DNA of 64,000 bases from Pristiophorus japonicus. Its lineage: Eukaryota. The notes under the pieces were generated by a model. It was not told where the DNA came from. It did not search any database and saw only the letters and a list, made by a program, of their open reading frames with translations. Below, piece by piece: positions 4,966 to 47,870 of this stretch (its first letter is position 1; the number at the start of each line of letters is the position of its first letter). The stretch is from NCBI RefSeq assembly GCF_044704955.1, contig NC_091978.1, positions 349,556,001 to 349,620,000 of the forward strand, written 5' to 3'. A program made the translations under genes and the position numbers.

Positions 4966-5842
4966 TTCATGCTCATACCAAATCATGTGACAAACCACGT
5001 ATTAATACAATACATTCTCCTATCCATATACACAGTCACCGCTCAACCTTGCCATCTCAGGTGGCCGCTCAATTCCCATCGTCTCAATCACAGACGAGGC
5101 CCATTTCCTTCTGCTTCTATGGGCTCTGCACATGATCTCAGAAGCATGGTCCTGGAAGGTGCGTATTATTTTTTGGTTCAGACTAGTTGGCTGTCCTTTC
5201 TGCAGTTGGTGATTCAAACTATTAAATTCAGTTTTCTGCCCTTATTTTACTGCTCAATTTTTGCACAGTTCAGACTGGAGTACTCCTTTCTGATGACCTT
5301 TTCTTGATCTGTATGAGATCTGATGAAGGAAAGCTGCTTTATTCTCTGCACACTGTTGGTTCCTTTTCTGCCCTGTCAAAAATCATTTATAGCTCTATTA
5401 TACACCAAAATAATTAATTACTAAAGATAGAAAATACTACTGACACAGGTCTGACAATTAAAACATTTTGGGCCCAAAATTGGTGGACATACCGTCGCAT
5501 ACCATGCGGACCGCCGACATACCGCCCAAAATCACAAAATTGATCAAAAAATACCTACATACCGCCCACATACTGCCCAGCGGGAAATTCATCAGCGACA
5601 TACCACCGGGCAGTATGCATACCATCCGCCCGTGTACACTACTGACATACCGCCCCAAATTATCAAATTGATCACTTACCAGCGACATAGCGCCAATCCT
5701 GCAGACCGCCCTGGAAAAGGTGGTTTTAAGTTGATCTTCAGTCGGCGGTATGCATCTTCACATGTGAAATTATCCTTTTATCTCTCACCCCCAGTCTCTC
5801 CCAACGCCCCCCCCATTCTCTTCCCCTCCCACCCCCACAGCG

Positions 5843-5948
5843 ATTCCCCCCAAGTAGCGATCTCCCTCCAAGTAGGCATCTCCCTCCAAGTAGGCATCTC
5901 CCTCCAAGAAGTCATTTCCCTCCAAGAAGTCATCTCCCTCCAAATAGC
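5843..5948. repeat. 18-bp minisatellite (ATCTCCCTCCAAGTAGGC-like), left part
   Basis: About 6 units seen directly; the array resumes at 6718-6840 after the CR1. Confidence 0.85.
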
Positions 5949-5957
5949 GGTATGCAT

Positions 5958-6717
5958 CAAAGAGCAAGTTATTATTTAAATGGAGAAAGATTGCAAAGTG
6001 CTGCAGTACAGCGGGACCTCGGGGTACTTGTGCATGAAACACAAAAGGTTAGTATGCAGGTATAGCAAGTGATCAGGAAGGCCAATGAAATCTTGGCCTT
6101 TATTGCAAAGGGGATGGAGTATAAAAGCAGGGAAGTCTTGTTACAGCTATACAGGGTATTGGTGAGGCCACACCTGGAATACTGCGTGCAGTTTTAGTTT
6201 CCATATTTACGAAAGGATATATTTGCTTTGGAGGCAGTTTAGAGAAGGTTCACTAGGTTGATTCCGGAGATGAGGGGATTGACTTATGAGGAAAGATTGA
6301 GTAGGTTGGGCCTCTACTCATTGGAATTCAGAAGAATGAGAGGTGATCTTATCGAATACGTATAAGATTATGAGGGGGCTTGACAAGATGAATGCAGAGA
6401 GGAGACTAGAACTAGAGGGCATGATCTTAGAATAAGGGGCCGCCCATTTAAAACTGAGATGAGGAGAAATTTCTTCTCACAAAAGGTTGTAACTCTGTGG
6501 AATTCACTGCCTCAGAGAGCTGTGGAAGCTGGAACATTGAATAAATTTAAGACAGAAATAGACAGTTTCTTAAACAGTAAGGGAATAAGGGGTCATGGGG
6601 AGCGGGCAGGGAAGTGGACCTGAGTCCATGATCGGATTAGCCATGATCGTATTAAATGGCGGAGGAGGCTCAAGGGGCCGTATGGCCTACTCCTGCTCCT
6701 ATTTCTTATGTTCTTAT
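5958..6717 (+). mobile_element. 5'-truncated CR1 LINE
   Basis: YYLNGE.L..QRDLGVLVH..LVRPHLEYCVQF..WNSLPQ; 3' tail CCTATTTCTTATGTTCTTAT. Confidence 0.92.
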
Positions 6718-6840
6718 AGTCATCTCCCTCCAAGTAACGATCTCCATCCAAATAGTCATCTCTCTCCAAATAGTCATCTCCCTCCAAATAGCCATCTTCC
6801 TCCAAGTAGTCATCTCCCTCCAAGTAGGCACCTCCCCCCC
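6718..6840. repeat. 18-bp minisatellite, right part
   Basis: About 6-7 units of AGTCATCTCCCTCCAAGT. Confidence 0.85.
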
Positions 6841-8029
6841 AGCAGTGATTCCCGCCCCCCCCCCCCCACATACCTGTACAGCGCTCTCAGGTCGACAATT
6901 GCTGTCGATTCTGGTCGGTGTCTCTCGGGGGGGGTGGAGCTTTGCGCAGAACTCGGGACCCGAAGATTCTCGAGTGCAAAGGACTCACCGCCCGCATACC
7001 GCTGGCTGCACTCTGCTCCGCCCGCTGCATTCCACTTGGCATACCGCCAAGAAAAAAGTGATGATAATTGCACACACTCCGCCCAGTAGTACCCAGCGGT
7101 ATGAAACGACATACCACCAGCATACTGCCGAGAAATGGGCGGACCGTCGGTTTTCACCAATTTCGGCCCTTTATGTTTTGATTTGGCACTAATAGTTTAA
7201 CACAAGCTGTAGACTAAATGGTTGTGGTAATATATGTTACATTAAACCCCTTATGCAGAATATTCAGACAATACAGATCGTGTCCACAGCCTCCAGTAAA
7301 TATGATGATTGATAATGTGCCTTTTCGGCACATTTCAAAGGGGACAATTGGCAAACTACCAGCCATAATAAGTAATGTCTGTATGCCATGTGTCTTAATG
7401 CGGAGATGTGCAAGTGTTTAACTGCACAAGCACATATGTTATTCTACTTGTCTATACAGGTACTGAGTGGATCTTAAGAGATTTTGGTCATGTGTAACTT
7501 TTAGTAGATATTTCCTCTAGAATTACATTCAAAACTTGTCCGTAAATCCATTGAAATATAGCAATAAACCAAATCAGTTTGATTTTTAAACTAATTTTGA
7601 ACCATATTTTACTACCGCTCCAACTGGTCAGCTAATAATGACAATACTTCTTATATGTTTATTCCAGAAAAAAGATTCCAGTAGAAAATGTGAGCAACTG
7701 GCCTGAAATTTATTTCACGCTAAAACTTAGTGAGCAATGCAGACACCGTTCTGCCTACTTTGAGTGATCCATTCAGTTAAAGCAGACCTGCGATCACAGT
7801 AGGTTGCAAAGTATCCCAGCTTGTTATCCTTTACGAGCTTCAGTCCTTGGTCTGAGATGAGTTGACTGATCTCAGTTGGAGTGATAATAAAAGTGCTAAA
7901 ATCGCCTTAGCCTTAGGAAGGGGAAACCATTCAGAGGGCATCTAATTGCTTTCCAGTGGCATGCGTGCAGATGAGGGCAGGATTGGGGTTGGCTATGATA
8001 CCCCAGTCTAGCTAGCAGCACTCTCGTTT

Positions 8030-8213: not shown

Positions 8214-8911
8214 TGGCATCACTGTGTGTGGACACCCATGCTAAGAATGGGAGATGAAACAAAGTGGTATAATGGAATCCGCTTGTAGCAATCCTGCGGA
8301 TGGGCTGATCAAACCCTGCTTGCCACAGTTCATTTCAGCTAAAGCTGTGTGCTTTCTCTTGGTGGGTTTGTGCTGGAAAACCAGCTCAGAAACTGCCAGT
8401 TCTGTGAAAGAATGTGATCATCCAAAGATCCCTTGCAGGCAGTTGTCAAATGAAAGCCACCCTTTGAGCTAAGTGATGCTAAGCTGTTTAAATTGCCAGT
8501 AACAAGCATTGTTTAGCAGCGGAGGAGAGCAGGACTCACGTTAAACTGTAAATGAACGTTTAGAGCCTCAAGGTGTCACCAGCACAGAAAAGGTTCAAAC
8601 TCGTTCCATTTATACTTGCCATTCGATCCATACTTTTCTGTCTGTGTTCTCTTTAACAGGCTGGTAGAGTAAAACAGGGGAGATCAGCAAACATCACATC
8701 TACAATGAAATGCTCAACCTCTCCTACCCCTCAGTATTTTAGAACATGAGCACTTTTCCTAAAAAGCAGTGTTGTAATGTATTTGCTTCATGGGTTCTTT
8801 GCTTAAGAATTCATAGCAACACATTGCTATTAAGAACGAACTGGTTTATTAACAAAGGTTTAACAATCACACTACACATTACCAGTTCATCCACTAGGCT
8901 AACAACTGCAT

Positions 8912-9012
8912 CATCATCATCATCATCATCATCATAGGCGGTCCCTCGAACGAGGATGACTTGCTTCCACGAGTTCACAGGTGTTTCGATGAAGGACCCG
9001 ATGTTCAGGTCC
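8912..9012 (-). mobile_element. Short RTE-type 3' fragment with (GAT)n tail
   Basis: (TCA)n tail; TSD CAACTGCAT at 8903-8911 and 9013-9021; same family as 48826-49222. Confidence 0.85.
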
Positions 9013-12000
9013 CAACTGCATAACTCATCGTGGATGACCTAGACCCAACTGACTGGGGTTTTAATGAGTCTGTGAACATCATGTGACTGGCTAAGCCACC
9101 CAAAATGCAACAGCTCTACAACTATTTTAAGTAAAAACATTAATACAAATGCCCCCTTATTAAATGGACACTAAAACCGACACATTAAACAAATTAAACT
9201 TTGGACATTAAAATAAATCAAATTAAAATTTGGTTGCCGGGGGTGATGATGCACTCCAGTCCCTCCGGTGCCCACCTCTCACGGAAGGCTGCGAGCGTAC
9301 CGGTGGACACCGCATATGCTCCATCTCCAGGGACACCCTGGCTCGGATGTAAGCGTGGAAGAGAGGAAGGCAGTCAGGCTGAATGATCCCCCCGACCGCC
9401 CACTGCCTGGACCGGTTAATGGCCACCTTAGCCATGGCCAGGAGCAGTCCTACGAGGAGGCCTTCCGACCTGCCTGCTCCCCTCCTGTTATGTATTGATG
9501 TTTGGGGTCACCAGACACCAGGGGACGCCACTGTCGGAGGTCATCAGGCTGTACACGCGTGTGCGCGGTCACTATAAAGGCGGGTACCATGTCACGCTTG
9601 TACTTTGAGCGCGAATAAAGTTGGATCAGGTTTACACATGAAGTCGTTTACAGTAACAAGACTCTTGAGTCATTACATTTGGTGACGAGGTAACTTAAGA
9701 ACCTTCGCATGTACAATGGGCACTAGTGAAATTCTGAAGAGATTCGCAAATGGAGAGGATTAGGCGTATTTTATCGACCACCTGGATCAGTATTTTGTGG
9801 CTTACAAAATGGAGGGAGAGGCTGACGCAGTTCGCCGCAGGGCAGTTTTCCTCACCGTTTGTGGTCCGAAAATTTACGGCCTTATGAAGAACCTTCTCTC
9901 GCTTTACGTCCAACAGACAAAGAGTACGAGGATTTGTGTGCTTTGGTGTGTGACCTTCTTAAGCCAAAAGAGGGGATCATCATTTCAAGCTATCACTTCT
10001 ATACGGATGTTCGTGCTGAGGGCCAGGATGTATCGGGATTCGTCGCTGACCTGCGACGTCTTGCTGAGCCGTGTAAGTTCGGGAACATGTTGGAAGACAT
10101 GTTGCGAGATTTCTTCGTGATAGGCATCAACCATGATGTGATTCTTCGGAAGTTATTGGCCGAAGAGAAGCTGGACTTGAGAAAGGCCATCGCAACTGCC
10201 CAGGCATGCATGACGACTGATGATAATTTGAGGCAGATATGATCGAAGAGTCAGAGCTCCACAGCAGGTACTGTAAACAAGATTGTGTCGTCTTCTGGCA
10301 GAGCTGCTTATGGCAGGGCCTACTCGACTGCTTATGTGAAACCTGTAGCTGCTCAGAGTCTGCCAACTGTTACGAATCTGATTTCACTCTGTTGGCGTTG
10401 TGGGGGCAATCATCGGCCTCATCAGTGTCGGTTAAACAATATGCCTGTAATGGTTGTTCGAAAGTGAGGCATCTTCAGAGAATGTGCCCATAACTGAGCA
10501 AGCGTGCTGCCGCTCATCACATTGTTGATGATGACCAATCCAGTGCTGGCCCAGATACCCAACCCGGGGAGGAAGTGTATGGTCTGTATTTGTTCTTAGG
10601 AAAGAGCCAGCCGATAATCGTTAATGTGAAGCTGAGTCAGTCGATAATGAGCCAAAGGACATTCGACAAGCTGTGAGACACTGAGGCTGTGAAGCCTAAG
10701 CTGAGTCCAATCAATACCAAGTTGTGTACTTACACTAAGGAACTCATACCGGTGATTGGCAATGCAGTAGTCAAGGTGTCATATGACGGTGTGGTTCATG
10801 CTCTAACATTTTGGATTGTCCCAGGTAATGGTCCAAAGCTGTTCGGCAGGAATTGGCTCGGGAAAATCAAGTGGAACTGGAATGATGGCAAAGCGTTGTC
10901 CTCGGTGGATGACACTTCATATGCTCAAGTGTTGAAGAAGTTTCCTTCTTTGTTTGAACCGGGCATTGGTAATTTTACTGGAGCCAAGGTGCAGATTCAC
11001 TTGGATTCTGATGCAAAGCCTGTCTATCATAAAGCTCAGTCTGTTCCTTACATGATGAGGGCGAAGGTTGAAATTGAGCTTGAAAGACTCCAACGTGAAG
11101 GGATCATATCACCGGTCAAGTTTAACGAGTGGGCCATTCCAATTTTCCTGTATTGAAGAGTGATGGCACTGTCAGGATTTGTGGAGACTACAATTCTCAA
11201 AACAGAATCAGTATCCGTTACCGAAGGCTGATGACCTGTTCGCCATGCTAGCTGGTGGAAAGTTGTTCACTAAACTAGATCTGACGTCAGCCTATATGTC
11301 ACAGGAGCTTGTCGGCACTTCGAAGAAACTCTCCTGCAACAACACCCATAAAGGACTGTTTGACTACAACAGGTGTCCTTTTGGAATTCGTTCGGCTGCA
11401 GCCATATTTCAGACGAATATGGAGAGTCTACTGAAGTCCGAGCCCAGAACTGTCATGTTTCAAGATGACATTCTGGTCAAGGTCACGCCACTTCTGAACA
11501 TCTGAACAATCTTGAAGAAGTCCTACGTCATCTGGATAAAGTGCGGCTCAGGCTGAAATATTCGAAGTGTGTCTTCATGGCACCTGAAGTTGAATTCCTG
11601 GGGAGGAAGATTGCTGCTGATGGCATCAGGCCTACCGATTCAAAAACCAAGGCCATCAAAAATGCACCCAGGCCTCTGAATGTGACGGAGCTGCATTCCT
11701 TGGGCTGCTCAACTACTTCGGTAATTTCTTACCCAGATTGAGCACTTTATTAGAGCCACTGCACATGCTACTCACAAAAGGTGACAACTGGGTCTGGGGC
11801 ATGTCTCAAGATAGAGCCTTTGAGAAAGCTAAGAATCTGCTCTGTTCAAACAAGTTGCTTGTTCATGATGATCCGTGTAAGCATCTTGTATTGGCCTGTG
11901 ATGCTTCATCATATGTACTCCAACAAGCAAATGAGTCGGGTAAGCTGCAACCAGAAGTGTATGCTTCAAGAAGTATGTTAAAGGTGGAAAGAGCTTACAG

Positions 12001-12640
12001 CATGGTAGAAAAAGAAGCATTGGCCTATTTTTATGGGGTTAAAAAGATGCATCAGTACCTGTTTGGTCTTCATTTTGAGTTCGAAAAGGATCACAAGCCA
12101 CTCATTTCATTGTTTTCGGAAAACAAAGGTATTAATACCAATGCAACGTTCCGTATCCAGAGGTGGGTGTTGACATTGTCTGCCTATGATTATTCGTCAT
12201 AGACCGGGTACTGAGAATTGTGCCGATGCACTGAGTTGTCTGCCTTTGCCCATACCTGATATGGAGATGCCTCAACCTGCAGATCTACTGTTAGTAATGG
12301 ATGCTTTTGAGAGTGAAGGAACTCCTGTCACTGATCAACAAGTTAGGATCTGGACCAGCCATGACCCTATTTTATCGGTTGTGAAACGTTGTGTCCTCAG
12401 TGATGATTAGTCTACAATACCTATGGAGATGTGTGATGAGACCAAACCTTACAACAGTCGCAAAGGTGAGCTGTCCATTCAGTCAGATTGTTTACTGTGG
12501 GGTAATCGTGACATTATGCCTAAGAAAGGTAGAGAATAATTCACGGGGTACGTGAACTACATAGTACTCATCCCGGTATTGTCACGATGAAAGCCATTGC
12601 TAGGTCTTATGTACGGTGGCCTGGAATTGACTCTGATATG

Positions 12641-12980
12641 TGTTCGATCTCTTAATTTTCAATGAGATGCGAACTCCGGTTGTAGATTTAAAGTAATTTT
12701 ATTCCAGCAGCCGCAACAGAACCTTGGCAGGGTTCCAGCTCTTTGTTCTTCTGAGAACACATGGCAAAAATGGCTGTTCTTATCCTGGATCAATTTACAG
12801 AAATGAACTCGCCTCCTTTGACCTTATTGGCTCAATTGACATATTGTTAACCCCTAATTGGCTCGCTGCCAAAAGTCCTAAAATGTCAAGTTGATTGATG
12901 ACTTAATGCAATGTGCTTATTCTCACGTAGACATAGGTCTGTGTTTTCTCAACTTTGCAGCCTGCTTGAATTCTCTATCA
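12641..12980 (-). mobile_element. 340-bp solo LTR, possibly ERV-type, inserted in the Gypsy A integrase region
   Basis: TG..CA ends; interrupts WPGIDSD/LESCV; 4-bp flanks TATG/TCTG; two CCAAT boxes and AATAAA on the minus strand. Confidence 0.65.
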
Positions 12981-13310
12981 TCTGGAATCATGTGTGCATC
13001 AGTGCAATGTTTGCATGCAGCTAAGTAAAGTACAAGCGGAATCTCCGCTGAGTCTTTGGTCGTGGCCAACTAAACTATGGTCGAGGATCCACATCGATTT
13101 TGCGGGCCCTTTCATGGGAAGATGTTTTTTGTTGTGGTGGATGCATGTTCAAAGTGGATAGAATGTATTATTATGTCATCCAGTACATCTACAGATACTA
13201 TTGAGAGACTTCGTGTCATGTTTGCTACTCATGGTTGGCCTAATATTGTTGTGAGCGACAACGGATTTTGCTTCACAAGTCTTGAGCTTCAGGAGTTCAT
13301 GAAACTCAAT

Positions 13311-15370
13311 GTCTGGTGTAAAAATAAAAAAGGGAAGGTGGCTCAACTGTGGCTATCAAGGGAAATCAGGGATAGTATTAAAGCCAAGGAAGTGGCATAC
13401 AAATTGGCCAGAAATAGCAGTGAACCCGGGGACTGGGAGAAATTTAGAACTCAGCAGAGGAGGGTTTGATTAGGGCAGGCAAAATGGAGTACGAGAAGAA
13501 GCTTGCAGGGAACATTAAGGCGGATTGCAAAAGTTTCTACAGATATGTAAAGAGAAAAAGGTTAGTAAAGACAAACGTAGGTCCCCTGCAGTCAGAATCA
13601 GGGGAAGTCATAACTGGGAACAAAGAAATGGCGGACCAATTGAACAAGTACTTCGGTATTCACTAAGGAGGACACCAACAACCTTCCGGATATAAAAGGG
13701 GTCAGAGGGTCTAGTAAGGGGGAGGAACTGAGGGAAATCTTTATTAGTCGGGAAATTGTGTTGGGGAAATTGATGAGATTGAAGGCCGATAAATCCCCAG
13801 GGCCTGATGGACTGCATCCCAGAGTACTTAAGGAGGTGGCCTTGGAAATAGCGGATGCATTGACAGTCATTTTCCAACATTCCATTGACTCTGGATCAGT
13901 TCCTATTGAGTGGAGGGTAGCCAATGTAACCCCACTTTTTAAAAAAGGAGGGAGAGAGAAAACAGGGAATTATAGACCGGTCAGCCTGACCTCAGTAGTG
14001 GGTAAAATGATGGAATCAATTATTAAGGATGTCATAGCAGTGTATTTGGAAAATGGTGACATGATAGGTCCAAGTCAGCATGGATTTGTGAAAGGGAAAT
14101 CATGCTTGACAAACCTTCTGGAATTTTTTGAGGATGTTTCCAGTAAAGTGGACAAGGGAGAACCAGTTGATGTGGTATATTTGGACTTTCAGAAGGCTTT
14201 CGACAAGGTCCCACACAAGAGATTAATGTGCAAAGTTAAAGCACATGGGATTGGGGGTAGTGTGCTGACGTGGATTGAAAACTGGTTGTCAGACAGGAAG
14301 CAAAGAGTAGGAGTAAATGGGTACTTTTCAGAATGACAGGCAGTGACTAGTGGGGTACCGCAATGTTCTGTGCTGGGGGCCCAGCTGCTTACATTGTACA
14401 TTAATGATTTAGACGAGGGGATTAAATGTAGTATCTCAAAATTTGCGGTTGGGTGGCAGTGTGAGCTGCGAGGAGGATGCTATGAGGCTGCAGAGTGACT
14501 TGGATAGGTTAGGTGAGTGGGCAAATGCATGGCAGATGAAGTATAATGTGGATAATTGTGAGGTTATCCACTTTGGTGGTAAAAACAGAGAGACAGACTA
14601 TTATCTGAATGGTGACAGATTATGAAAAGTGGAGGTGCAACGAGACCTGGGTGTCATGGTACATCAGTGATTGAAGGTTGGCATGCAGGTACAGCAGGTG
14701 GTTAAGAAAGCGAATGGCATGTTGGCCTTCATAGCGAGGGGATTTGAGTACAGGGGCAGGGAGGTGTTGCTACAGTTGTACAGGGCCTTGGTGAGGCCAC
14801 ACCTGGAGTATTGTGTACAGTTTTGGTCTCCTAACTTGAGGAAGGACATTCTTGCTATTGAGGGAGTGCAGCGAAGATTCACCAGACTGATTCCTGGGAT
14901 GGTGAGACTGACCTATCAAGAAAGACTGGATCAACTGGGCTTGTATTCACTGGAGTTCAGAAGAATGAGAGGGGACCTCATAGAAACGTTTAAAATTCTG
15001 ACGGGTTTAGACAGGTTAGATGCAGGAAGAATGTTCCCAATGTTGGGGAAGTCCAGAACCAGGGGTCACAGTCTAAGGATAAGGGGTAAGCCATTTAGGA
15101 CCGAGATGAGGAGAAACTTCTTCACCCAGAGAGTGGTGAACGTGTGGAATTCTCTACCACAGAAAGTAGTTGAGGCCAATTCACTAAATATATTCAAAAG
15201 GGAGTTAGATGAAGTCCTTACTACTCGGGAGATCAAGGGGTATGGCGAGAAAGCAGGAAGGGGGTACTGAAGTGCAAGTTCAGCCATGAACTCATTGAAT
15301 GGCGGTGCAGGCTAGAAGGGCTGAATGGCCTACTCCTGCACCTATTTTCTATGTTTCTATGTTTTCTATG
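13311..15370 (+). mobile_element. 5'-truncated CR1 LINE inserted in Gypsy A
   Basis: RT pieces KSPGPDGLHPRVLKE, YRPVSLTSVVGK, DVVYLDFQKAFDKVPH; (TTTCTATG)n tail; splits the host motif MKLN/GIRHV. Confidence 0.97.
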
Positions 15371-16014
15371 TATTAGACATGTGAGGCCAACTCCATTCAA
15401 ACCTGCTTCTAATGGTCAAGCAGAGCATGCTGTTCAAACGATTAAGCAGAGTATGAAACATGTAACTCAGGGTTCACTGCAGACTCGTTTGTCATGTATA
15501 TTGCTCAGTTACAGGTCAAGACCTCATACGCTTACTGGGGTTGCGCCTGCAGAACTACTGATGAAGAGAAATCTCAAGACCAAGCTTTCTCTTGTTCATC
15601 CTGATCTGAATGATTGTGTTGAAAACAGACGTCAAAGTCAGCAATGGTATCATGAGCGTGCTGCTGTGTCATGTGATATCTCGGTCAACGATCTGGTTTA
15701 TGTACTGAACCATGGTCAAGGTCCAAAGTGGATTGCCAGTACTGTTACAGCCAAGGAGGCTAACAGAGTTGTTATTGGCGTGCTTAAGAATGGACAAACA
15801 TGCAGGAAACATGTTGATCAGATAAAACTGCGGCACATAGATGAACTGGAACCGTTTGAGGAAGGTGCAGTCAGTGACCAACCAACCAATGTTCATTCAT
15901 CAGAGGACATGGGTGTCATGACTGAATCTGGACCTTCAGTCACTGATATAGTCATTACCATTCCCATCAGATCGGTTACTCAGCCTCCGGTCACAACTGA
16001 CTCAGAACACTCGC

Positions 16015-19000
16015 TGTCATGTATTCAACTATCAATGTAACCCATGTATAAGCTGACCTAAGTTGTACACCTTGAGAACATTGACCACAAGGGGGTGAAC
16101 TTGTGGGAGACACTCCTAACCTGGACTTTCAGGTATAAAAGGGGAAGCTCCACCCACCTTCATCACTTGAGGTCTTGGTAATCAAGGTAACTGGTCACAG
16201 AGTGACCTTTTCTCAAGTATGGGCCTCGTGTGCATTTATACTGTATAGTAAGGAGATATCATTGGCGACGAGAAACTGGGATTTAAACCAGGCGAGCATG
16301 GCCACTAGCAGCACAGAAGAGAAGTACTGTGTTGATGATGATTTGGACGACTTTATTGAGAGACTACAACAAAGTTTTGTCACGATGGAATAGTTGGGAC
16401 AGGATTCAGGCTGACAAACGCAGGGCTCATCTCCTGACGGTTTGTGGATCCAGAACGTACTCCCTGATGAAGGACCTTCTAGTGCCAGAGAAGCCGGCGG
16501 ACAAGACGTTCGAAAAGCTCAGTAAGTTGATCGGGGAACACCTTAAACCGGCGAGCAGCATTCACATGGCGCGACACCGGTTTTACACGCACCGGTGGCG
16601 AGAAGGGCAAAGTGTTCCAGACTTCGTGGCAGATCTCCGACGACTGGCGAGCCTATGTAAGTTCACAGATGCATGCAGAGCGGGGATGCTGCGAGACTTT
16701 TTTATTGAGGGCATTGGGCACGCTGGGGTTTTCAGGAAACTGATTGAGCCCAAAGACTTGACCTTGGAAGCGACGGCTCTGATAGCCCAGACATTTATCT
16801 CAGGGGAGGAAGAGACCAGAATGATGTATGACAAAAATCTTGGCTCAAATGCGGCAAACAACCAGGGAGTCAACATTGTTAACGCGGCACGCAGTTCTCT
16901 AGGCAGACAAGGGCAATCGGACATGCCCCAGCATGCAGTCGAATCCAAAGGGGGAATTCAACAGAGACGATGGCTAACTGAACGGCGATTCATGCCATTG
17001 TAATCGACAATGCGGCCAGTAATGGGGCCAGCAACACCTGTTAATGGTACACTAAAGGACAGTTACAGAGACAGTCAGAGATGATCGACTGGTAATGGAC
17101 CTTTTGTTTCCAACAACGGGGCCTCCAGCTCATGCTGGAGGTGTGGAGGCAAACAGCCAGCCAGAGCTTGCAGGTATCAGCAATATACCTGCAGAAACTG
17201 CAACGTCAGTGGTCACTTGGCGCGTATGTGCAGGAAGCCTGCAGCCAGGTTGATGTACGAGGAGGATGGGCCCGATGTAAGCCCTACGGGCCAAATGAAT
17301 ACTGGGGGAATTCGCTGGAAGCTGAAGTTCAGCGAGTTCATCTGGAGCACATATACAGTTCATATACCAGGACGCCACCGATAATGATGAAAGTGCTCTT
17401 CAATGGCATCCCAGTATTAATGGAGCTGGACACGGGGGCCAGCCATTCCCTGATGAATATCAAACAGTTCGAAAGGTTGTGGGTGCCCAAGGCCAGGAGG
17501 CCAAAATTATTGCCGATTGACGCACAGCTACGGACATATACAAAGGAGATTATTCCGATGCTAGGCAGCGCCACGGTAGTCGTGACCCACAAAGATTCGG
17601 AGAACAGGTTGCCACTCTGGATTGAACCGGGGGATGGTCCCGCACTACTGGGGAGGAGTTGGCTTGCTGTCATGAACTGGAAATGGGGCGATGTCAATGC
17701 AATTTCTTCGGTGGAGCGAGTATCATGCTCACAGGTCCTGGACAAATTTGACTCATTATTTCAACCCGGCATCGGCACTTTCATGAGGGCCAAGATAGTG
17801 ATTCACATAAACCCGGTCGCCAGGCCAGTATACCACAAGGCCAGAGCGGTGCCGTACATGATGCAGGAAAAGATAGAAGGCGAATTGGACTGCCTGCTGA
17901 GGGAAGGCATCATCTCGCCAGTCAAATTCAGTGACTGGGAGAACCCGATCGTGCCGGTGCTCAAGGCGAATGGGTCGGTCAGGATATATGGTGATTACAA
18001 GGCCACCATCAATCGGGTGTCACTCCAAGACCAGTACCTGCTACCGAGAGCGGAGGACCTTTTTGCGACGCTATCCGGTGGCAAACTTTTTCAAAAATGG
18101 ACCTGACCTCAGCTTACATGACCCAGGAGCTGGCGAGTGAGTCAAAGAAGCTGACCACCATCACGACACACAAGGGGTTGTTTGAGTATAACAGATGTCC
18201 GTTTGGGATTCATTCGGCCGCCGCGAACTTCAGCAAAATATGGAAAGCCTCCTCAAGTCGATTCCAAGGATGGTGGTTTTTCAAGACGACATCCTCATCA
18301 CGGCTCGCGATACTGAAGAACACCTCCACAACCTGGAGGAGGTGCTACCCAGACTGAACCGGGTAGGGCTGCAACTGAAAAAGGCGAAGTGCGTCTTCTT
18401 AGCTCCAGAGGTAGAATTCCTGGGGAGGAGGGTAGCAGCAGACGGGATCAGTCCCACTGTGTCCAAAACGGAAGCGATCCAGAGAGCACCCAGACCCCGT
18501 AACACGACGAAGCTGTGTTCGTTCCTGGGGTTCCTGGAACTATTTTGGTAACTTTCTTCCCAAATTGAGCACGCTGTTAGAGCCGCTACACATGCTCCTA
18601 CGCAAAGGTCGCGATTGGGTCTGGTGGGGACAGACAGGAAAGGGCTTTTGATAGAGCACGCAACTTGTTCTGCTCCAACAAACTGTTAACATTATATGAC
18701 CCGAGTAAGAAACTTGTTCTCATGTGCGGTGCGTCGTCCTGTGGGGTTGGGTGTGTGTTGCAGCATGTGAATGCCAATGGTCAGTTACAGCTGGTAGCTT
18801 ATGCCTCCAGAAGTCTGTCCCAGGCAGAAAAGGGTTACGGGATGGTAGAAAAGGAAGTGCTAGCATGTGTATATGCAGTAAAAAAAATGCACCAGTACCT
18901 GTTTGGCAGGAAATTTGAGCTGGAGACAGATCACAAACCCCTAACGTCCCTTTTGGCGGACAACAAGGCCATAAATGTGACTGCATCAGCCCGCATACAG

Positions 19001-20707
19001 AGGTGGGCACTGACATTAGCCACCTATGACTACACAATTCGGCACAGACCGGGCACTGAAAACTGTGCTGATGCACTCAGCAGGCTCCCACTAGCCACCA
19101 CTGAGGGGGCAACTGAACATGATGCTGAGATGGTCATGGCTGTTGAAGCTTTCGAAAGCGAAGGCTCACCTGTGACAGCCCGTCAGATTAAAGTCTGGAC
19201 AAATAAAGACCCGTTACTGTCTTTAGTTAAGAAATGTGTCCTGAATGGGGACTGGGCAGCCACGTATGGGGCATGCCCTGAGGAGTTTAAACCATTTCAT
19301 AGGTGCAAGGATGAACTCTCGATTCAGGCTGATTGCCTAATGTGGGGAAACCGAATAGTCATGCCCCAGATGGGCAGAGAGGTGTTTATCAGAGAACTTC
19401 ACAATGAGCACCCGGGCATTGTCATGATGAAGGCAATTGCCAGGTCACATGTTTGGTGGCCAGGGATAGATGCAGACCTGGAACACGTGTGCTCAGCTGG
19501 GCAACGCACCCAGGGAAGCACCCCTTAGCCCCTGGTCCTGGCCCGCCAAGCCATGGTCACGCATCCATGTGGACTACGCAGGTCCTTTCATGGGAAAAAT
19601 GTTTTTGGTTGTAGTAGACGCCTACTCCAAATGGATTGAGTGTGCCATTTTAAATTCAAGCACATCCTCTGCCACGGTAGAAAGTCTACGGGCAATGTTC
19701 GCCGCCCATGGTCTACCAGATGTCTTGGGCAGCGACAATGGCCCGTGCTTCACAAGCACTGAAATCCAGGACTTCATGGCAGGCAATTGAATCAACCATG
19801 TCAGAATGGCACCGTTCAAGCCAGCCTCAAACGGCCAGGCGGAATGAGCAGTGCAGATAATCAAACAGGGGATGCTCAGAATCCAATGATGTTCCCTACA
19901 AAGCCGCTTATCACGCCTCCTGTTGGCCAATAGATCCCGACCACACTCGCTCACAGGGGTTCCACCCACAAAGCTGCTAATGAAAAGGACGCTCAAAACC
20001 AGGTTATCCCTAATACACCCCACTATGAAAGAAATTGTTGAGAGCAGGCGTCAGTCACAATGTGACTACCATGACAGGAATTACGCTGCAGGGCCCAAAT
20101 GGCTTGCAGGCACTGTGATTGCCAAAGAGGGGAATAGAGTTTTGGTAGTTAAACATACCAATGGACAAATCTGCCACAAACACGTGGATCAAACTAAAAG
20201 GAGGTTCAGCAACCCCATAAAAGAAGAAGAGGAAGAACACGATGTAGAGTTCACTCCACCACAGGTGACCGAACACAGGAACCAAAGGGAGGAGAGCCCA
20301 ATCACTGTGGGCAGTCCGGACAGGCCTGAGGCACCGCAAACAGCAGACACTCAGGCCAGCGCCCAACAACCGGAGCCCCAACTCAGGCGCTCTACAAGGG
20401 AGCGTAAACCACCAGAGAGACTTAACCTGTGATTCCAATAAGGCTTTGCGGGGGAGGTGATGTCATGTATTCAACTGTCATTGTAACCCATGTATAAGCT
20501 GACCTAAGTTGTACACCTTGAGAACATTGACCACAAAGGGGTGAACTTGTGGGAGACACTCCTAACCTGGACTTTCAGGTATAAAAGGGGAAGCTCCACT
20601 CACCTTCATCACTTGAGGTCTTGGTAATAAAGGTAACTGGTCACAGAATGACCTTCTCTCAAGTATGGGCCTCGTGTGCATTTATACTGTACAGTAAGGA
20701 CATATCA
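16015..20707 (+). mobile_element. Ty3/Gypsy (Mag-like) element B, full length, nested in A
   Basis: LTRs 16015-16261 and 20461-20707; PBS TGGCGACGAG; PPT GGGGGAGGTGA; TSD CTCGC/CTCGC. Confidence 0.97.
16298..20432 (+). pseudogene. gag-pol of Gypsy B (disrupted)
   Basis: Gag RRAHLLTVCG; two zinc knuckles; protease MELDTGAS; RT FQDDIL; RNase H ETDHKPL; integrase HVDYAGPF and SDNGPCF. Confidence 0.93.
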
Positions 20708-21289
20708 CTCGCCGAGAACTAAAGTTGAATTGAGACGATCAAATCATGAGAGGAAAGTCCCAGACTGTCTTAATTTGTAAAGAGAGTGATATTAAGATTT
20801 TGAAAGAGGATGTTGTTATGTATTGATGTTTGGGGTCACCAGACATCAGGGGGCGCCATTGTCGGAGGTCATCGGGCTGTACGTGCGTGTGCGTGGTCAC
20901 TGGTATATAAATGTGGGTACCATGTCACGCGGGTGCTTTGAGTGCGAATAAAGTTGGATCAGGTTTACACCTGAAGCCGTTTACAGGAACAAGACTCTTG
21001 AATCATTACACCTCCGCACAGGGTGCCCAAAGATCAGGAGCGTGGGACTGAAGTCCAACCACAATTTGAGAAGCAGCCCATTCAAATATTGGAATGGGGT
21101 TGCAACCTCACACATTGCACATACACATGGAACACGGACTCAACCAGACCGCAGAAATTGCAGGCGGCCTGGGAATCTGTGAACCGACTTAAAAACCTAT
21201 TAAATGGGACTGTTCCGTGCAACACCCTCCAGGCCAAGTCCCCAATAAATACAGGGAGAACTCCCACATCGAGAGCAACAGCTCTACAA

Positions 21290-21975
21290 CTATTTTAAGT
21301 TGTGATCAGTAATCAATTGCTCCCTGATTAAAGGGGGAGGGACACTCCAAAATCTTTTCAAGTGCCCCCTTGTTTTTTTTTGAGGGCACTAAAACAAATT
21401 ATACAAGTGCCACCTGGCTAAAAGCTGGGGGGGGGGGCACTAAAACCAGCACAATAAACAAATTAAGCTTTAGACAAAAAATATCAAATTAAAATTTGGT
21501 TGCCGGGGCTGATGCCGGGGCTGATGATGTACTTCAGTCCCTCCGGTGTCCACCTCTCATGGAAGGTCGCGAGCGTATCGGTGGACACCGCGTGCTCCAT
21601 CTCTAAGGGCACCCTCGCTCGGATGTAACCACGGAAGAGAGGCAGGCAGTCGGGCTGAACGACCCCCTCGACCGCCCGCTGCCTGGACCGGGTGATGGCC
21701 CCCTTGGCCGTGCCCAGGAGCAGTCCTACGAGGAGGTCTTCCGACCTGCCCGCTCCCCTCCACACAGAGTGCACAAAGATCAGGAGTGTGGGACTGAAGT
21801 GCAACCAGAATTGGAGGAGCAGCCCCTTTAAATATTGGAACGGGGGTTGCAACCTCGTACATTCAATAAAAAGATGGAACACGGACTCTTCCAGACCGCA
21901 GAAATTGCAGGCAGCCTGGGAGCCCGTGAACCGACTTAAAAACTTATTGCAAAGGGAGAACTCCCACATAGAGAG
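21290..21975 (-). mobile_element. Tx1-clade LINE 3' fragment, copy 2
   Basis: CNKFLSRFTGSQAACNFCGLEESVFHLFIEC...GNQILI* plus 3' UTR; flanked by the target 14-mer at 21276-21289 and 21976-21989. Confidence 0.9.
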
Positions 21976-21989
21976 CAACAGCTCTACAA

Positions 21990-22128
21990 CTCTTTTGTTG
22001 CAAACTAATAAATAAACAATTAAATCAAGTGCCCCCTTATTAAAGGGGGGGACACTCCAAACATTTTTCAAGTGCCCTTTTTTTTGTTTTTTTTTTGTGT
22101 GTTTTTTTCTGGGTTTTTTTGTGGGTTT
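21990..22128 (-). mobile_element. Tx1-clade LINE, 3' UTR only, copy 3
   Basis: Shares ATTAAAGGGGG..GACACTCCAAA..TTTTCAAGTGCCC with the copy 2 UTR; flanked by the target 14-mer. Confidence 0.75.
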
Positions 22129-22223
22129 CAACAGCTCTACAAACCTGTGAGCATACATTACACTGGGAAAAGATGACCACTCAAGTTACTTCAATGTTGG
22201 GTAAACCTTTCAGACATTGATGA

Positions 22224-24717
22224 TGTTGTGTATGGAGAAAGAGTCAGACTGAACAATGTGAGCTCAAAGTAAAGTGTGACCTTAGTCTTTTATTGCAGGT
22301 CTCCAAAGTGCCTCTCCAACCTGTGAAGCCTCCTTAAATAACTGTGCTCCCAAGGGATTATGGAATCCCTTGGGACTCCAGGGGATGAGCCCTCTGGTGG
22401 CTGTTCAGAGTGAATACAAGTGTATATATATAAAACAACACTCGCCCGCAAAGTCAATAGTGTGACTATTTACAATGTGAGTCGATCTGGGGCCCTTCTT
22501 GCCCTGGTTGATCGTCTCGGTGTGAAAGCTGGTGTTGTTGAATCATTTGTTGGGCCCTTGCAGGGCTGCTGTGCAGCTGGCCTTGCTGGGCTGCCTGGTG
22601 TGTTGGGCCCTGCTAGGCTGCTGTGGATGATGGCTTCTGCTTCGTGGTCAACCGTGGTGTCGGTTGCCACTGGTGTGTATGTTGGGGAATCAAAAAAGTT
22701 AGGGTCCAAGGTGAGTTGCTCAGGATAGTCCGTGAATCTGAGTTTGATTTGGTCCAAGTGTTTCCGGTGAATGAGTCCATTTGAAAGTTTGACCCAAAAC
22801 ACCCTGCTCCCCTCCTTAGCCACAACAGTGCCAGGAAGCCATTTGAGGCCTTGTCCATAATTTAATACAAATACAGGATCATTGATTTCAATCTCGCGTG
22901 ACACATTTGCGCTATCATGGTATGCACTTTGTTGAAGCCACCTGCTCTCTACCTATTCATGTAGATCAGGGTGAACTAATGAGAGCCTTGTCTTAAGTGC
23001 TCTTTTCATAAGTGCTCTTTTCATGAGCAGTTCAGCAGGTGGGATCCCAGTGAGTGAGTGGGGTCTCGTGCGGTAGCTTAGCAGGACTTGGGATAGGCGA
23101 GTCTGCAGTGAGCCTTCAGTTACCCTCTTCAAACCTTGCTTGAAGGTTTGCACTGCTCTCTCTGCCTGACCATTGAACGCTGCTTTAAACGGGGCAGATG
23201 TGACATGTTTGATCCCGTTGCGGGCCATGAATTCTTCGAACTCAGCACTGGTAAAACATGGCCCGTTGTCGTTCACCAGGACATAGGGTAGGCCATATGT
23301 GGCAAACGTGGCCCGCAGGCTTTCAGTAGTGGCAGCGGACGTGCTAGCCGACATTATTTCATATTCAATTGGAGTACGCGTCTACAACCACAAGGAACAT
23401 TTTACCCAAGAACGGGCCTGTATAGTCGACGTGTACCCGAGACCACGGTTTGGAGGGCCAAGACCATAAACTTAGCGGTGCCTCACTGGGTACATTGCTT
23501 AATTGCAAGCATGTATTACATTTGTGAACGCAGGACTCTAAGTCCGCATCGATACCGAGCCACCACACGTGGGATCTGGCTATCGCTTTCATCATTACGA
23601 TGCCTGGGTGGGTACAGTGGAGGTCATTGATGAAGGTGTCTCTGCCCTTCTTGGGGACCACTACTCGATTGTCCCACAGAAGGCAGTCTGCCTGTATAGA
23701 CATTTCATCTTTGTGCCACTGGAACGGCTTTATCTCTTCCTGCATTTCCACCGGGCACTGGACCAGCTCCCATGAAGCACACAGCTTTTGACTAGAGATA
23801 ATAAGGGGTCCTGGCTTGTCCAGGTTTTGATCTGCCGGACAGTGACGGGTGATTGCTCACTCTCAAATGCTTCCATAACCAAGGCTAGATCTGCGGGCTG
23901 CGCCATTTCGACCTCCGTGATGGGCAATGGCAGCCTACTGAGAGCATCGGCGCAGTTTTCTATGCCTGGCCTGTGGCGGATGGCATAGTTGTATGCGGAC
24001 AACGTGAGCGCCCATCTCTGGATGCGAGCCGATGCGTTGTTATTTATCCCTTTACTCTCGGAGAACAGGGATACAAGTGTCTTATGGTCAGTTTCCAATT
24101 CGAATTTTAGCCCAAACAGGTATTGATGCATTTTCTTTACCCCATAGCTAACGCTTCTTTCTCAATCATGCCGTAGGCTCCCTCAGCCTTAAACAGACTC
24201 CTGGATGCATAAGCAACCAGTTGCAGTTTCCCGAAATCATCAGCTTGTTGCAATACACACCCGATGCCATATGACGACACATCACATGCAAGTACCAAAC
24301 GCTTACATGGATCATACAACACAAGCAATTTGTTTGAGCATAACAATTTTCTCGCTTTTATAAAGGTATTTTCTTGGCTTTTGCCCCAAACCCATTCGTC
24401 CCCTTTTCGTAGTAAGACATGCAGTGGTTCTAACAGTGTGCTGAGACCCGGTAAGATGTTACCAAAGTAGTTCAGGAGTCCTAGAATCGACCGCAGCTCC
24501 GTCACGTTCTGCGGCCTCGGTGTGTTCTCGATTACCTCCGTCTTCATGTTGGTGGGCCTGATGCCGTCCGCCGCAATCCTCCTTCCCAGGAACTCCACTT
24601 CAGGTGCCAGGAAAACGCACTTCGAGCATTTTAACCTGAGCCCCATGCGGTTGAGTCGACTAAGAGCCTCCTCCAGGTTCTGCAGATGCTCGACTGTGTC
24701 CCGACCTGTGACCAAGA
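22224..24717 (-). mobile_element. Ty3/Gypsy element C, 3' half only (RT end, RH, IN, 3' LTR 22224-~22437)
   Basis: Minus-strand ORFs EHLQNLEE, ETDHK, HVDYTGPF, NGPCF; LTR related to the element D LTR. Confidence 0.92.
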
Positions 24718-24740
24718 AGGTATTTGAAACTGTCCTACAT

Positions 24741-26150
24741 AACAACAACAACATGGACTTATATAACACCTTTAACATAGTAAAATGGCCAATGCACTTC
24801 TCAGAAGCGTAATCAGATAAAAATCAACACCAAACTGAAGAATTGATGACTATTATGTTATGAAATATTAGCAACTAAAAGCTTGGTCAAAGAAGTGGGT
24901 TTTAAGGATGGTCCAAAGGAGGAGAGGAAGGTGGCGAGGTAGAGTGGTATAGGGAAGGAATTCCAGAGCTCAGCGTCTAGATGACTGAAGGGTTGGCCAG
25001 CAATGGTAGGCAAAGTGATTTTTGGAATGCACAAGAGGCCAGAGTTGGAGCAATGAAGAGCACGTGGAGTTTTCTAGGGCTGGAGAATCTTGCAGAGAGA
25101 GGGGTGAGGACATGAAGCGATTTGAATATGAGGATGAGAATTTTAAACTATCCTTAGACTGGGAACCAGTGTACAGGCAAGTATAAGGATGAAGCGTGAT
25201 CAGGACTTGATGCAGCATAGGATATGGACAGCAGAGTTTTTGGATGAGCTTACGTTTATGGATGGTAGAAGGATGGGAGGCTGGCCAGGAGAGCAGTGAA
25301 ATACTTGAGTTGAAGTTGAGGTGAAAAAAGCATGTATAAGTGTTTCAGCAGAAGATGGGTTGAGGCAGGACGGAGATGGATAATGTTGCAGAAGTGGAAG
25401 TAGGCGGTCTTTGTGATGGAGAGGATTATGGGGTCGGAAGCTCAGCTCAGGACTGAATAAGACACCAAGACTGCGATCTGAGGCATTGGTCAGGGTGGAT
25501 GATGGAATGAGTGTCAAAGGTACAATGTTTGTAGTGGGGGCCGAAGGCAATGGCTTCGGACTTCTAAATATTGGAGGAAATTGTGACTCATCCAAGACTG
25601 AAGGCGGGCAAACAGGCTGATAGCACAGAGGTAGTGGAGGATTCGAGAGAGATAGTCTAATGGTAGAGCTGGGTGTCATCGCTGTAAATTTGGTTCCTGT
25701 CCTCATGTATTCAGATAATGTTGCCAAACATATAGATGAGGAACAGGATGGTCTTTGGATAGATCTTTGGAGGACTCCAGAGATAATGGTACAGGGGCAG
25801 GAAGTGAAGCCAATACAGGACATGTTCTGGCCAGGGTGGCTAGGCAAGAATGGAACCAAGCAAAGGCAATAGAGGAGAGGCATCAGAGGAAGATAGTGTG
25901 GTCAAACATGTCAAAGGTTGCAAATGTGTCAAGAAAGACGAGGAGGGATTGTGTACCATGGTCACAGTCACGAATGATGTCATTTGCGACTTTGATTTGG
26001 GCAGTTTTAGTTCTGTGGCAGGGGTGGAAAAATCTTGGAGAGATTCAAGCATAGAGTTGCGGGAAAGATGGGCATGGATTTGGGAGGCAATAAAACTCTT
26101 CAAGGACTTCAGACAGGAAAAAGTGGTTGGAGATCGGTGGTAGTTTGGAC
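24741..26150 (-). mobile_element. Degenerate L2 LINE 3' part
   Basis: Minus-strand ASQIHAHLSRNSMLES, LGVLFSPELSFRPH, SAETLIHAF; (GTT)n tail. Confidence 0.85.
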
Positions 26151-26249
26151 ATTCAACAAAGCAAACAGCTGCTGAGTCTGTTTGACTACACTTCAGAAAT
26201 GCTTCATTGACTGTAAAGGGCTTTGGGATGTCCTGAGGACATGAAGGCA

Positions 26250-26590
26250 CCACCTACAAGATGCATTACAGCAACTCGCCCAGGCTTCTTCAGCAGCAGT
26301 TCCCAAACCTGCGACCTCTACCACCTAGAAGGACGAGGGTAGCAGGCACATGGGAACACCAAGTTCCCCTCCAAGTTACACACCATCCTGACTTGGAAAT
26401 ATATTGACGTTTCATCATCATTGCTGTATCAAATCCTGGAACTCACTCCCTAACAGCACTGTGGGAGTACCTTCACCTCACTGACTGCAGCGGTTCACGA
26501 AGGCGGCTCGCCGCCACCTTCTCAAGGGCAGTTAGGGATGGGCAATAAATGCTGGCATTGCCAGTGATGCCCACATCCCGGAATGAATTT
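26250..26590 (+). mobile_element. 3' end of a CR1/L2-group LINE (same family as 1490-1862)
   Basis: Directly similar to 1530-1862, including the tail GGGATGGGCAATAAATGCTGGC. Confidence 0.75.
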
Positions 26591-27366
26591 TTAAAAATAT
26601 ATAAATGCAAATCTTGCTTTTTACATCTGGAATGGTGTTCTGGATAGGGTACTGGAGACAAAATCTCTGGAGTCACTTAAGAAGTAGATAGATGCTGTGA
26701 CAGTGGTACTATAGGTTTTTAGAGGATGAGTTATATGGTTTGAATGGACTTGCCCCTCTCTACTTATCTATGTGATGTTTATGAAGAAAAGCATTCTATT
26801 CTTTTCTTCTTTTACATTAGTCTTTCACAGAGGAAGAGTTTGAAAACGGAGTTCAGTCCTCCTTAGTTTCCACTCCAATAAACTGCTACAATTTTGAGGG
26901 CCTGCCTTAGATAATTCCTTGGGTACAGCAAGTGGTGGTCACTCCTGTAAGCACTTTACGTTTAGGGGTATGCCTGTACTACCCAATATCTAACTATATG
27001 ACAATGTAATCCAAGACTACCTTGTGTTCTGAACTGGATATAATGGGGCCGATTTTAATTTCCATCGACATCGGGCGGGCAGTGAGCGGAATGATTGTGC
27101 CACCTCTCCAGTGTCACCAGTGAGAGTGTTGGGGAATACTAGAAAGAAAAGCTTAGAGTTGTGCTCGCTGTGCCAGCAATGAGAATTCTAGATGCAGAAT
27201 CTTAAGCTTATAGATTTATTAGCAGAAATAATACTCACCGACAATACACGCAATGATTCAAAGGGTGTGGGAGACCACACGTTGCACTTGCTGACTCAGT
27301 AGCAGGATGATCAGCACTGGTCTTCCTAACTTTGCATTGTAGTGTCTCACCTTTATCCCTCAGCAT

Positions 27367-27837
27367 GTCAGCTGTGACTCAGTGAGTAGCACACTCAGTT
27401 CTGAGTCAGAAGGTTGTGGGTTCAAGTCCCACTCCAGGGACCTGAGCACATAAATCTAGGTTGACACTCCAGTGCCGTGCTGAGGGAGTGCTGCACTGTC
27501 GGAGGTGCCGTCTTTCGGATGAGATGTTAAACCAAAGCCCTGTCTGCTCTCTCAGGTGGACATAAAAGATCCCATGACACTATTTCGAAGAAGTGCAGGG
27601 GAGTTATCCCCAGTATCCTGGTCAATATTTATCCCTCAATCAACATCACCAAAATAGATTATTTGGTCATTATCACATTGCTGTTTGTGGGAGCTTGCTG
27701 TTGCAAATTGGCTGCCACATTTCCTACATTACAATAGTGACTACACTTTAAAAGTGCTTCATTGGCTGTAAAGTGCTTTGAGACATCCGGTGGTCCTGAA
27801 AGACGCTGTAGAAATTCAAGTCTTTCTTTCTTTCTTT
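27367..27837 (+). mobile_element. tRNA-derived Deu-domain SINE (SacSINE1-like), full length
   Basis: A-box/B-box head (GGTTCAAGTCC); Deu core GGATGAGATGTTAAACC..AAAAGATCCCATG..TATTTATCCCTCAA; (CTTT)n tail. Confidence 0.85.
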
Positions 27838-47702: not shown

Positions 47703-47870
47703 AAAGAAAGACTTGCATTTATATAGTGCCTTTCACGATCACTCGAAGTCCCAACGCGCTTTACAGCCAATGAAGTACTTTTTGAAGTGTAGTCACTGTT
47801 GTAATGTAGGAAACACAGCAGCCAATTTGCACACAGCAAGCTCCCACAAACAGCAATGTGATAATGACCA
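47703..47870 (-). mobile_element. Deu-SINE 3' fragment
   Basis: Reverse complement of the 27670-27837 tail. Confidence 0.8.

Follow-up and report, generated by a model that had tools for sequence, protein, structure and literature searches.

What decides where a site-specific retrotransposon inserts, its protein or its RNA? The question is raised by a stretch of 64,000 nucleotides (nt) from the shark Pristiophorus japonicus (contig NC_091978.1, positions 349,556,001 to 349,620,000 of the forward strand), here called the window. Fragments of a Tx1-clade long interspersed element (LINE) stand there head to tail at one 14-mer, CAACAGCTCTACAA, inside the long terminal repeat (LTR) of another mobile element. 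The genome (5.9 Gb) holds four targets of this Tx1 family, and the target follows lineage. The reading favoured here, with moderate confidence, is that the target is selected by pairing of a read-through RNA with the nicked DNA strand, the endonuclease being undemanding. It is preferred because targets are linked to lineages, the commonest endonuclease residues agree between two lineages with different targets (LTR and CR1-b), off-target insertions end in each lineage's own triplet, and transductions record read-through transcripts.

A scan of the window finds exact matches of the 14-mer at 9108, 21276, 21976 and 22129, the four positions given in the original prediction, and three more at 50551, 50687 and 50887, which form a second array in the same LTR family; the chance expectation for the window is 0.0008. 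TGTAATGTA lies at 8773 and TACATTACA at 22154. Between successive 14-mers of the first array lie three minus-strand Tx1 3' fragments with differing 3' untranslated regions (UTRs), also as predicted. About 11.5 of the 13.4 kb of this array are later nesting: a Gypsy element (9486-21010), flanked by a CCTCC duplication and itself containing CR1 sequence and a second Gypsy element, interrupts copy 1, and both parts of copy 1 are collinear with a natural full-length copy. The final A of the 14-mer is part of the Tx1 element end, and off-target copies place the nick after ...TACA. The preceding TG is retained at many 5' junctions, so that the target site duplication (TSD) measures 13-15 bp. The features are listed below; ORF stands for open reading frame and RT for reverse transcriptase.

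8773-9120, minus strand: part of the host Gypsy LTR that is downstream when read in LTR sense; it contains the AATAAA poly(A) signal and ends in the target (90-92% identical to a natural empty LTR, positions 1-150 and 129-241)
8919-9009, no strand assigned: (CAT)n-tailed repeat of ~90 bp inside the left part of the LTR, boundaries approximate (the LTR alignment is interrupted here, and homologues lie at 48848 and 54026)
9108-9121, minus strand: target/TSD copy 1, exact match, last A common with the Tx1 3' end
9121-9485, minus strand: Tx1 copy 1, 3' part, with short A-type UTR and ORF2 end; probably the oldest unit, from the order of UTR types (85% identical to positions 146-505 of the natural full-length copy)
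9486-21010, plus strand: later nested Gypsy element A, outside the system; LTRs 9486-9677 and 20814-21010, TSD CCTCC (sequence comparison)
13313-15370, plus strand: fragment of a probable CR1-type LINE within Gypsy A, boundaries approximate (translated RT)
16015-20707, plus strand: Gypsy element B within A; LTRs begin at 16015 and 20461, TSD CTCGC (sequence comparison)
21011-21275, minus strand: 5' part of Tx1 copy 1, continuing 9121-9485 collinearly (matches the natural full-length copy at positions 501-768)
21276-21289, minus strand: target/TSD copy 2, exact match
21289-21975, minus strand: Tx1 copy 2, with longer A-type UTR and ORF2 C-terminus (ORF present); its last 23 nt repeat the 5' junction of copy 1 after a skip of ~50 bp
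21976-21989, minus strand: target/TSD copy 3, exact match
21989-22128, minus strand: Tx1 copy 3, C-type 3' UTR only; probably the youngest unit, from the order of UTR types
22129-22142, minus strand: target/TSD copy 4, exact match
22142-22162, minus strand: first part of the host LTR, read in LTR sense; most copies are 14 bp longer (LTR alignment)
50329-50911, minus strand: another array, independent of the first, in an LTR of the same family; LTR sequence at 50329-50563, Tx1 fragments 50564-50686 and 50700-50886, 14-mers at 50551, 50687 and 50887

The ORF2 fragment of the window has no Pfam match. In the second array (50329-50911) the final ~25 bp of the LTR are absent.

The host is a Ty3/Gypsy LTR, in agreement with the earlier placement of the target in the LTR of another mobile element. 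A pattern of the right half of the target has 1132 exact matches genome-wide, of which the first 30 loci were inspected; 23 of these 30 are empty LTRs, ~250-280 bp long. The LTR begins with TG and ends with CA, and a 5-bp flanking duplication is found at 16/19 complete empty copies (4-5 of the 5 bases matching; control 6/342), two of the three copies that lack it adjoining internal sequence. At loci L061 and L062 the LTR is followed by Gypsy internal sequence that encodes, in this order, a presumable gag without Pfam match, RT, RNase H and integrase, the last with a match below cut-off. LTR and Tx1 are both read on the minus strand, with the target ~35 bp from the LTR start. In one provirus a single GTATC duplication encloses both an empty LTR and, at the opposite end, an LTR filled by Tx1, which shows that Tx1 arrived after integration. 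The window host is without a 5-bp duplication (AGTGT / CTGGG), so its two halves or its flanks may have been rearranged. Counted with the same 25-base anchor, exact target sites are occupied in 1186 cases and empty in 596, meaning that two thirds are filled; the expectation that empty LTRs hold the 14-mer is thereby confirmed. Two other identities of the host were rejected. A miniature inverted-repeat transposable element (MITE) or Helitron-like element is ruled out by the 5-bp TSDs and the internal Gypsy region, and a plus-strand sense by the purine tract and AATAAA on the minus strand.

Two further observations concern this host. Repeats with a (CAT)n tail occur in three separate copies of the LTR family (window 8919-9009, L271 and L283), each at a CATCA-like spot, and are possibly a second LTR parasite with a site preference. 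The minus strand of L063:3-887 carries a 295-codon open frame with a basic cleavage-like motif followed by a hydrophobic and a coiled-coil-like stretch, which we take to be an envelope gene fragment.

The inserts are 5'-truncated copies of a Tx1-clade LINE (L1 group). Natural full-length copies measure 7.1-7.2 kb and in some of them both ORFs are open. The intact copy L127 has an ORF1 of 702 and an ORF2 of 1306 codons, stop to stop, with matches to PF03372, PF00078 and, weakly, PF13966, corresponding to an N-terminal apurinic/apyrimidinic (APE) endonuclease, an RT and a C-terminal zinc motif; the endonuclease of R2 is C-terminal. A putative ORF1 zinc knuckle matches PF00098 at E 0.0044, below the curated cut-off. 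The closest characterised relative of the ORF2 protein (ORF2p) is YTX2 of Xenopus laevis (49% identity, 99% cover), which upholds the clade first proposed, and shark and ray proteins match ORF2 in fragments at 69-71%; none of the matches in that search is labelled Keno, Mutsu, Dewa, Kibi/Koshi or Tx1-Mar. The best PDB matches are L1-EN and its Tx1L-loop chimera. The endonuclease is 46% identical to the Tx1L endonuclease and its hairpin loop has 8 residues versus 11; this shortening by 3 residues was counted in favour of RNA selection. The hallmarks of target-primed reverse transcription are present, namely variable 5' truncation and TSDs mostly of 13-15 bp at off-target sites. A near-copy of the 14-mer also stands at the 5' end of the full-length copies themselves, even in lineages that target CR1. 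The initial view of the 14-mer as the target is supported as to its presence in empty LTRs and has to be amended for this 5' end.

Some loci bear on the age and the ends of the element. At G000:C1:9710120-9760558 (L127, L128, L134) eight CR1-site junctions lie ~7.2 kb apart, and the units inspected are full-length; two of these units have both ORFs open and are 99% identical, which indicates that the family is young. An extra C is common at the 5' junction of full-length LTR-site copies (L098, L099, L117) and would be expected from a copied cap G. The 5' junction of L133 is inverted, a short 3' piece lying opposite the 5' end of a different copy, so that the two make a local palindrome.

The spread of targets was assessed in a sample independent of the flank, the ORF2 stop region of the window type, which has 7187 matches. 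The first 30 were scored and comprise 25 ends at the LTR site (L040 scored via its neighbour, and three from one array), one at a CR1 site and four elsewhere; window-type ends thus mostly abut the 14-mer (24-25/30), as anticipated. The first 30 of the 29,056 genome-wide matches to the 3'-end motif of the family divide into 20 CR1-a, 4 LTR and 6 other. What had been described as one site-specific family is so for its window type, and has four targets when taken as a whole. Each sample exceeds the threshold for target preference, more than 20% of flanks in one repeat type, given in PMC4494074, the window type for the LTR site and the family-wide ends for the CR1-a site.

There are 9018 exact 3' junctions of LTR type. 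Most copies that share 93-95% identity with a copy at the LTR site lie at a site in the ORF2 of CR1 (CR1-a; 15,691 exact junctions), some of them as eight 7.2-kb units in series. The CR1-b lineage uses the equivalent site of a second CR1 subfamily. The fourth lineage enters the same LTR at position 118 (site 2), with 217 exact junctions and true 14-bp TSDs in 4/30 loci plus one further locus. Full-length LTR, CR1-a and CR1-b copies are 87-90% identical to each other, those of LTR and CR1-b having been chosen by a shared 5'-end motif and hence being close relatives by selection. The targets of LTR and CR1-b differ at 10/13 bases. An ORF1 tree of 34 rows requires two changes for three targets, the minimum possible (shuffled mean 14.8). 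The endonuclease-only tree does not separate LTR from CR1-b (7-8 changes), nor are site-2 copies resolved by a 430-nt 3' tree. In a midpoint-rooted tree with weak support the CR1 lineages are surrounded by LTR copies, whose end branches are longer. The 5'-end near-copy of the LTR target is intact in CR1-b and more decayed in CR1-a; this decay in CR1-targeting lineages suggests, as an order derived without outgroup, a passage from LTR to CR1.

Several loci show variations on these sites. Full-length site-2 copies (L317, L325-L329) seem to have, at the 5' end, 43 nt derived from LTR positions 76-118, a longer captured target than that of site-1 copies. In L288, L308, L311 and L313 the 3' junction is at LTR site 2 and the right-hand junction at site 1, with LTR 119-225 missing between them, through either target deletion or mixed arrays. 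L199:1400-1930 belongs to a more diverged Tx1 subfamily with another UTR and a flank ending in GCACT, possibly a fifth target.

The ORF2 comparison, based on the commonest residue per column in 14 LTR and 19 CR1-b copies (~12 and ~18 per endonuclease column), bears directly on the choice between protein and RNA. None of the 240 endonuclease columns (ORF2 columns 1-240), hairpin included, differs between LTR and CR1-b; the 18/1299 ORF2 columns that do differ are all outside the endonuclease. CR1-b and CR1-a differ at 44 ORF2 columns. The variant T65I/C67S is common to LTR (4/12) and CR1-a copies. The endonuclease-only specificity implied at the outset consequently appears doubtful for this family.

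Off-target insertions provide a second line of evidence. They were searched with patterns that forced three mismatches at -9 to -7, and the copies found have clean TSDs, mostly of 13-15 bp. At distinct sites with a TSD, the final triplet is ACA in 17/20 LTR, GAA in 10/19 CR1-a and AGA in 4/4 CR1-b insertions. None of the off-target triplets is that of another lineage (background ~6% each), and two of the LTR exceptions are GCA, compatible with a G:U pair. In one CR1-b subfamily 0/95 copies follow an LTR-type end. One LTR subfamily has 24 forced-mismatch sites versus 34 exact ones, so that its specificity is far from absolute. Two LTR-lineage off-target copies (L244, L246) lie at CAAGCTCCCACA, a near-match to the target in shifted register that is also found in a repeat at window 47830-47850; it is a possible secondary target. 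TTA-ending off-targets of CR1-a were considered as a lineage of their own and this was ruled out (7 changes versus a shuffled mean of 9).

A third line of evidence comes from transcripts that outran the element. A search for poly(T) joined to LTR sequence just past the poly(A) signal gave 25 matches, and the 20 loci fetched represent 16 distinct places, one of them a whole LTR. The other 15 begin at LTR position 57-59, ~14-16 nt past AATAAA; 13 of these continue into a Tx1 3' end, and their flanks are unrelated. A TSD encloses the unit in 7/15 (6 with Tx1 sequence), all seven ending in three or more T, and the base after the TSD is A in only two of the seven. These poly(A)-tailed 3' transductions are fossil evidence that Tx1 transcripts ran through the target as far as the LTR poly(A) signal. 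Poly(A)-primed RNAs of the family used T-ending sites with no change in TSD length.

The mechanism proposed from these results starts with the endonuclease, likely weakly specific, which would supply staggered nicks 13-15 bp apart. The read-through RNA tail would pair with the nicked strand and so choose the target, only nicks whose 3' end pairs with the tail being extended. Each lineage would inherit the flank of its parent as its target, and a rare stray insertion in another abundant repeat would found a new specificity. Full-length RNAs would carry a 5' copy of the target and prime the second strand with it. Taken to its full extent, this would make the Tx1 family a natural RNA-programmed integrator, one ORF2p with a nearly unspecific endonuclease serving at least four sites by specificity inherited from the flank, with no protein change needed; this wider proposal is tentative and is given slightly less than an even chance.

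The most serious alternative, though an unlikely one, is that target choice lies with the protein, as in Tx1L: recognition would have been switched by a few ORF2p substitutions, in the endonuclease loops of some lineages and in the linker, the RT or the C-terminal zinc-finger region of others, and read-through RNA would only sharpen the 3' junction. By itself the Tx1L endonuclease of Xenopus nicks hardly anything but its own target (PMC1950540), which makes protein specificity the known rule of the clade. Residues linked to lineage do exist in ORF2 (the 18 and 44 columns mentioned above, 8 of the latter in the endonuclease), cis-preference would likewise hold a target with its lineage, and the TTA class could reflect a second protein preference. 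Set against this, 10/13 target bases change between LTR and CR1-b with no endonuclease column splitting them, T65I/C67S is found on both sides of a target boundary, poly(A)-tailed RNAs of the family entered T-ending sites with the same TSD length, and four targets occur among such close lineages.

RNA selection has itself to face a number of difficulties besides the precedent of Tx1L. Some of the 18 differences outside the endonuclease are clustered close to the C-terminal zinc finger, 8 endonuclease columns separate CR1-a from CR1-b, and the site-2 lineage departs at still more of them, hairpin tip included (6 degraded copies). R is found at the hairpin tip in 5/12 LTR copies, and no endonuclease was recovered for the older A-type subfamilies of the window. 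The trees are midpoint-rooted with mostly weak support. The off-target match spans only 3-4 bases and comes in part from the design of the search pattern; at L263 an array of LTR type follows an AGA end. A TTA end is found in 22 of the first 100 listed CR1-a off-targets (counted by eye), a class that fits only if polyadenylation occurred one base past the element end. The poly(A)-primed copies could have been moved by the protein of another LINE. Finally, the model as it stands does not include a route by which a weak endonuclease would reach such enrichment of full matches.

The arrays probably lengthen as new copies insert, one after another, at the 5' junction of their predecessor, as argued by differing 3' UTRs, older types coming first and common 5' breakpoints. 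Window copies 1 and 2 are 86-89% identical and have different UTRs; the junction of copy 2 equals that of copy 1 at 37/38 positions (21953-21990), versus 84-86% identity elsewhere. The 5' end is shared by 10/21 neighbour pairs, runs of mixed UTR types included, versus 1/1037 between-locus pairs, a difference counted for the array part of the favoured reading. Pair identity is 0.88 for the short A-type UTR versus 0.92, which makes A-type the older. A-type is found at 18/24 LTR-adjacent junctions versus 21/62 others, these 62 being enriched in C-type by search design, and in genome listings (100 each, counted by eye) at 86/100 LTR-adjacent junctions versus 71/100 of all junctions. The order of types in the window is A, A, C; in adjacent pairs alone the A-to-C order is not significant (6 versus 1, p 0.125). 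Each insertion would regenerate the site and the next copy would enter at the 5' junction of the previous one, to which its cDNA would anneal, so that the breakpoint of the neighbour is copied. The original inference that the 14-mer is both target and TSD, regenerated by separate events, is supported.

That arrays arose mainly by tandem duplication or unequal exchange, or by Tx1 fragments being copied along with Gypsy, with no repeated targeting, is very improbable. Near-identical units (L127/L128 at 99%; L047-L049), alternating unit ends in L057, a 33-bp tandem in L031 and the common 5' breakpoints of neighbours, which are slightly more alike than random pairs (0.92 versus 0.89), point in that direction. 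Neighbours nevertheless differ in UTR type, in the window and elsewhere, its copies 1 and 2 are too dissimilar, breakpoints hardly ever agree between loci, and the provirus with an empty and an occupied LTR lies inside one GTATC duplication. Pure tandem duplication as the general cause is refuted by the mixed-subfamily arrays; some young homogeneous arrays may be duplications. That the 14-mer is merely an internal part of Tx1 and the apparent TSDs are element ends, an idea drawn from the similar sequence at the 5' end of full-length copies, can practically be dismissed, being refuted by the 596 exact empty sites and 23/30 empty target-anchored loci, by the 14-mer flanking copies truncated at unrelated points, and by off-target and CR1 copies without it at the 3' end.

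The window holds other repeats as well. More minus-strand Gypsy elements lie at 22220-36730 with a common LTR at ~22224, 27943 and 36528, an 18-bp tandem repeat forms two blocks (5809-5983 and 6689-6881), and 2562-3300 is a long G/A-rich simple repeat.

That Tx1 elements can target LTR retrotransposons is already on record (PMC4494074). In crocodilians Tx1-8_Crp and Tx1-4_AMi prefer LTR retrotransposons, Tx1-Mar is directed to Mariner-N4_AMi and Tx1-9_AMi to Harbinger, and tandem insertion is recorded for SINEU (PMC4494074). The likeness to the shark family is one of preference for other transposons, with related families having different targets; no CR1 target is named in the available part of that source, which ascribes target choice mainly to the endonuclease, co-transcription only strengthening it. 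The type element Tx1L of Xenopus laevis also has a fixed site in another mobile element, the Tx1D transposon (PMC4494074). Its ORF2p (49% identity over 99% of the length) and endonuclease (46%) are related to those described here; its target differs from the Gypsy LTR and CR1 ORF2 sites used here, of which one family has four, and its endonuclease is specific on its own, which is doubtful for the shark elements.

Pairing by the RNA has its own precedents. In R1Bm, R2 (R2Ol, avian R2) and SART1 the RNA pairs with the primer through its downstream target sequence, which raises accuracy and efficiency, and the upstream co-transcribed target primes the second strand (PMC7265360, PMC6795142, PMC13580325). 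L1's snap-velcro model attributes target choice to the endonuclease together with RNA-primer pairing (PMC4014453). Tail pairing in R2Ol, SART1/R1Bm and L1 is a precedent for the RNA-tail reading, with two differences: in the R1Bm/R2/SART1 group the protein fixes the site and the tail assists, whereas here the tail appears to change the site used; the poly(A) tail of L1 leads to dispersed insertion, whereas the tail of the present family would consist of a unique flank and give a target that is heritable and multi-copy. A search of titles and the beginnings of abstracts, with subscription papers, Repbase and Dfam outside its scope, found no published account of shark Tx1 in a Gypsy LTR or CR1, and none of target switching without endonuclease change.

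Target change in site-specific LINEs is usually credited to evolution of the endonuclease. Here, in a single genome, close sister lineages occupy four targets, two of these lineages share an endonuclease, and young intact copies are present; control by protein or by RNA is therefore testable, and the interest of the system rests on this question more than on the LTR target itself. Current R2-based tools gain retargeting only by adding Cas9 (PMC13580325). If the RNA-tail reading is true, the family would offer a compact, RNA-retargetable insertion enzyme of the APE class, in which replacement of the tail would retarget insertion without Cas9. Read conservatively, it is still a large case of a transposon parasitising transposons, with two thirds of the exact LTR sites filled. 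If the tail decides, the variety of Tx1 targets would be explained.

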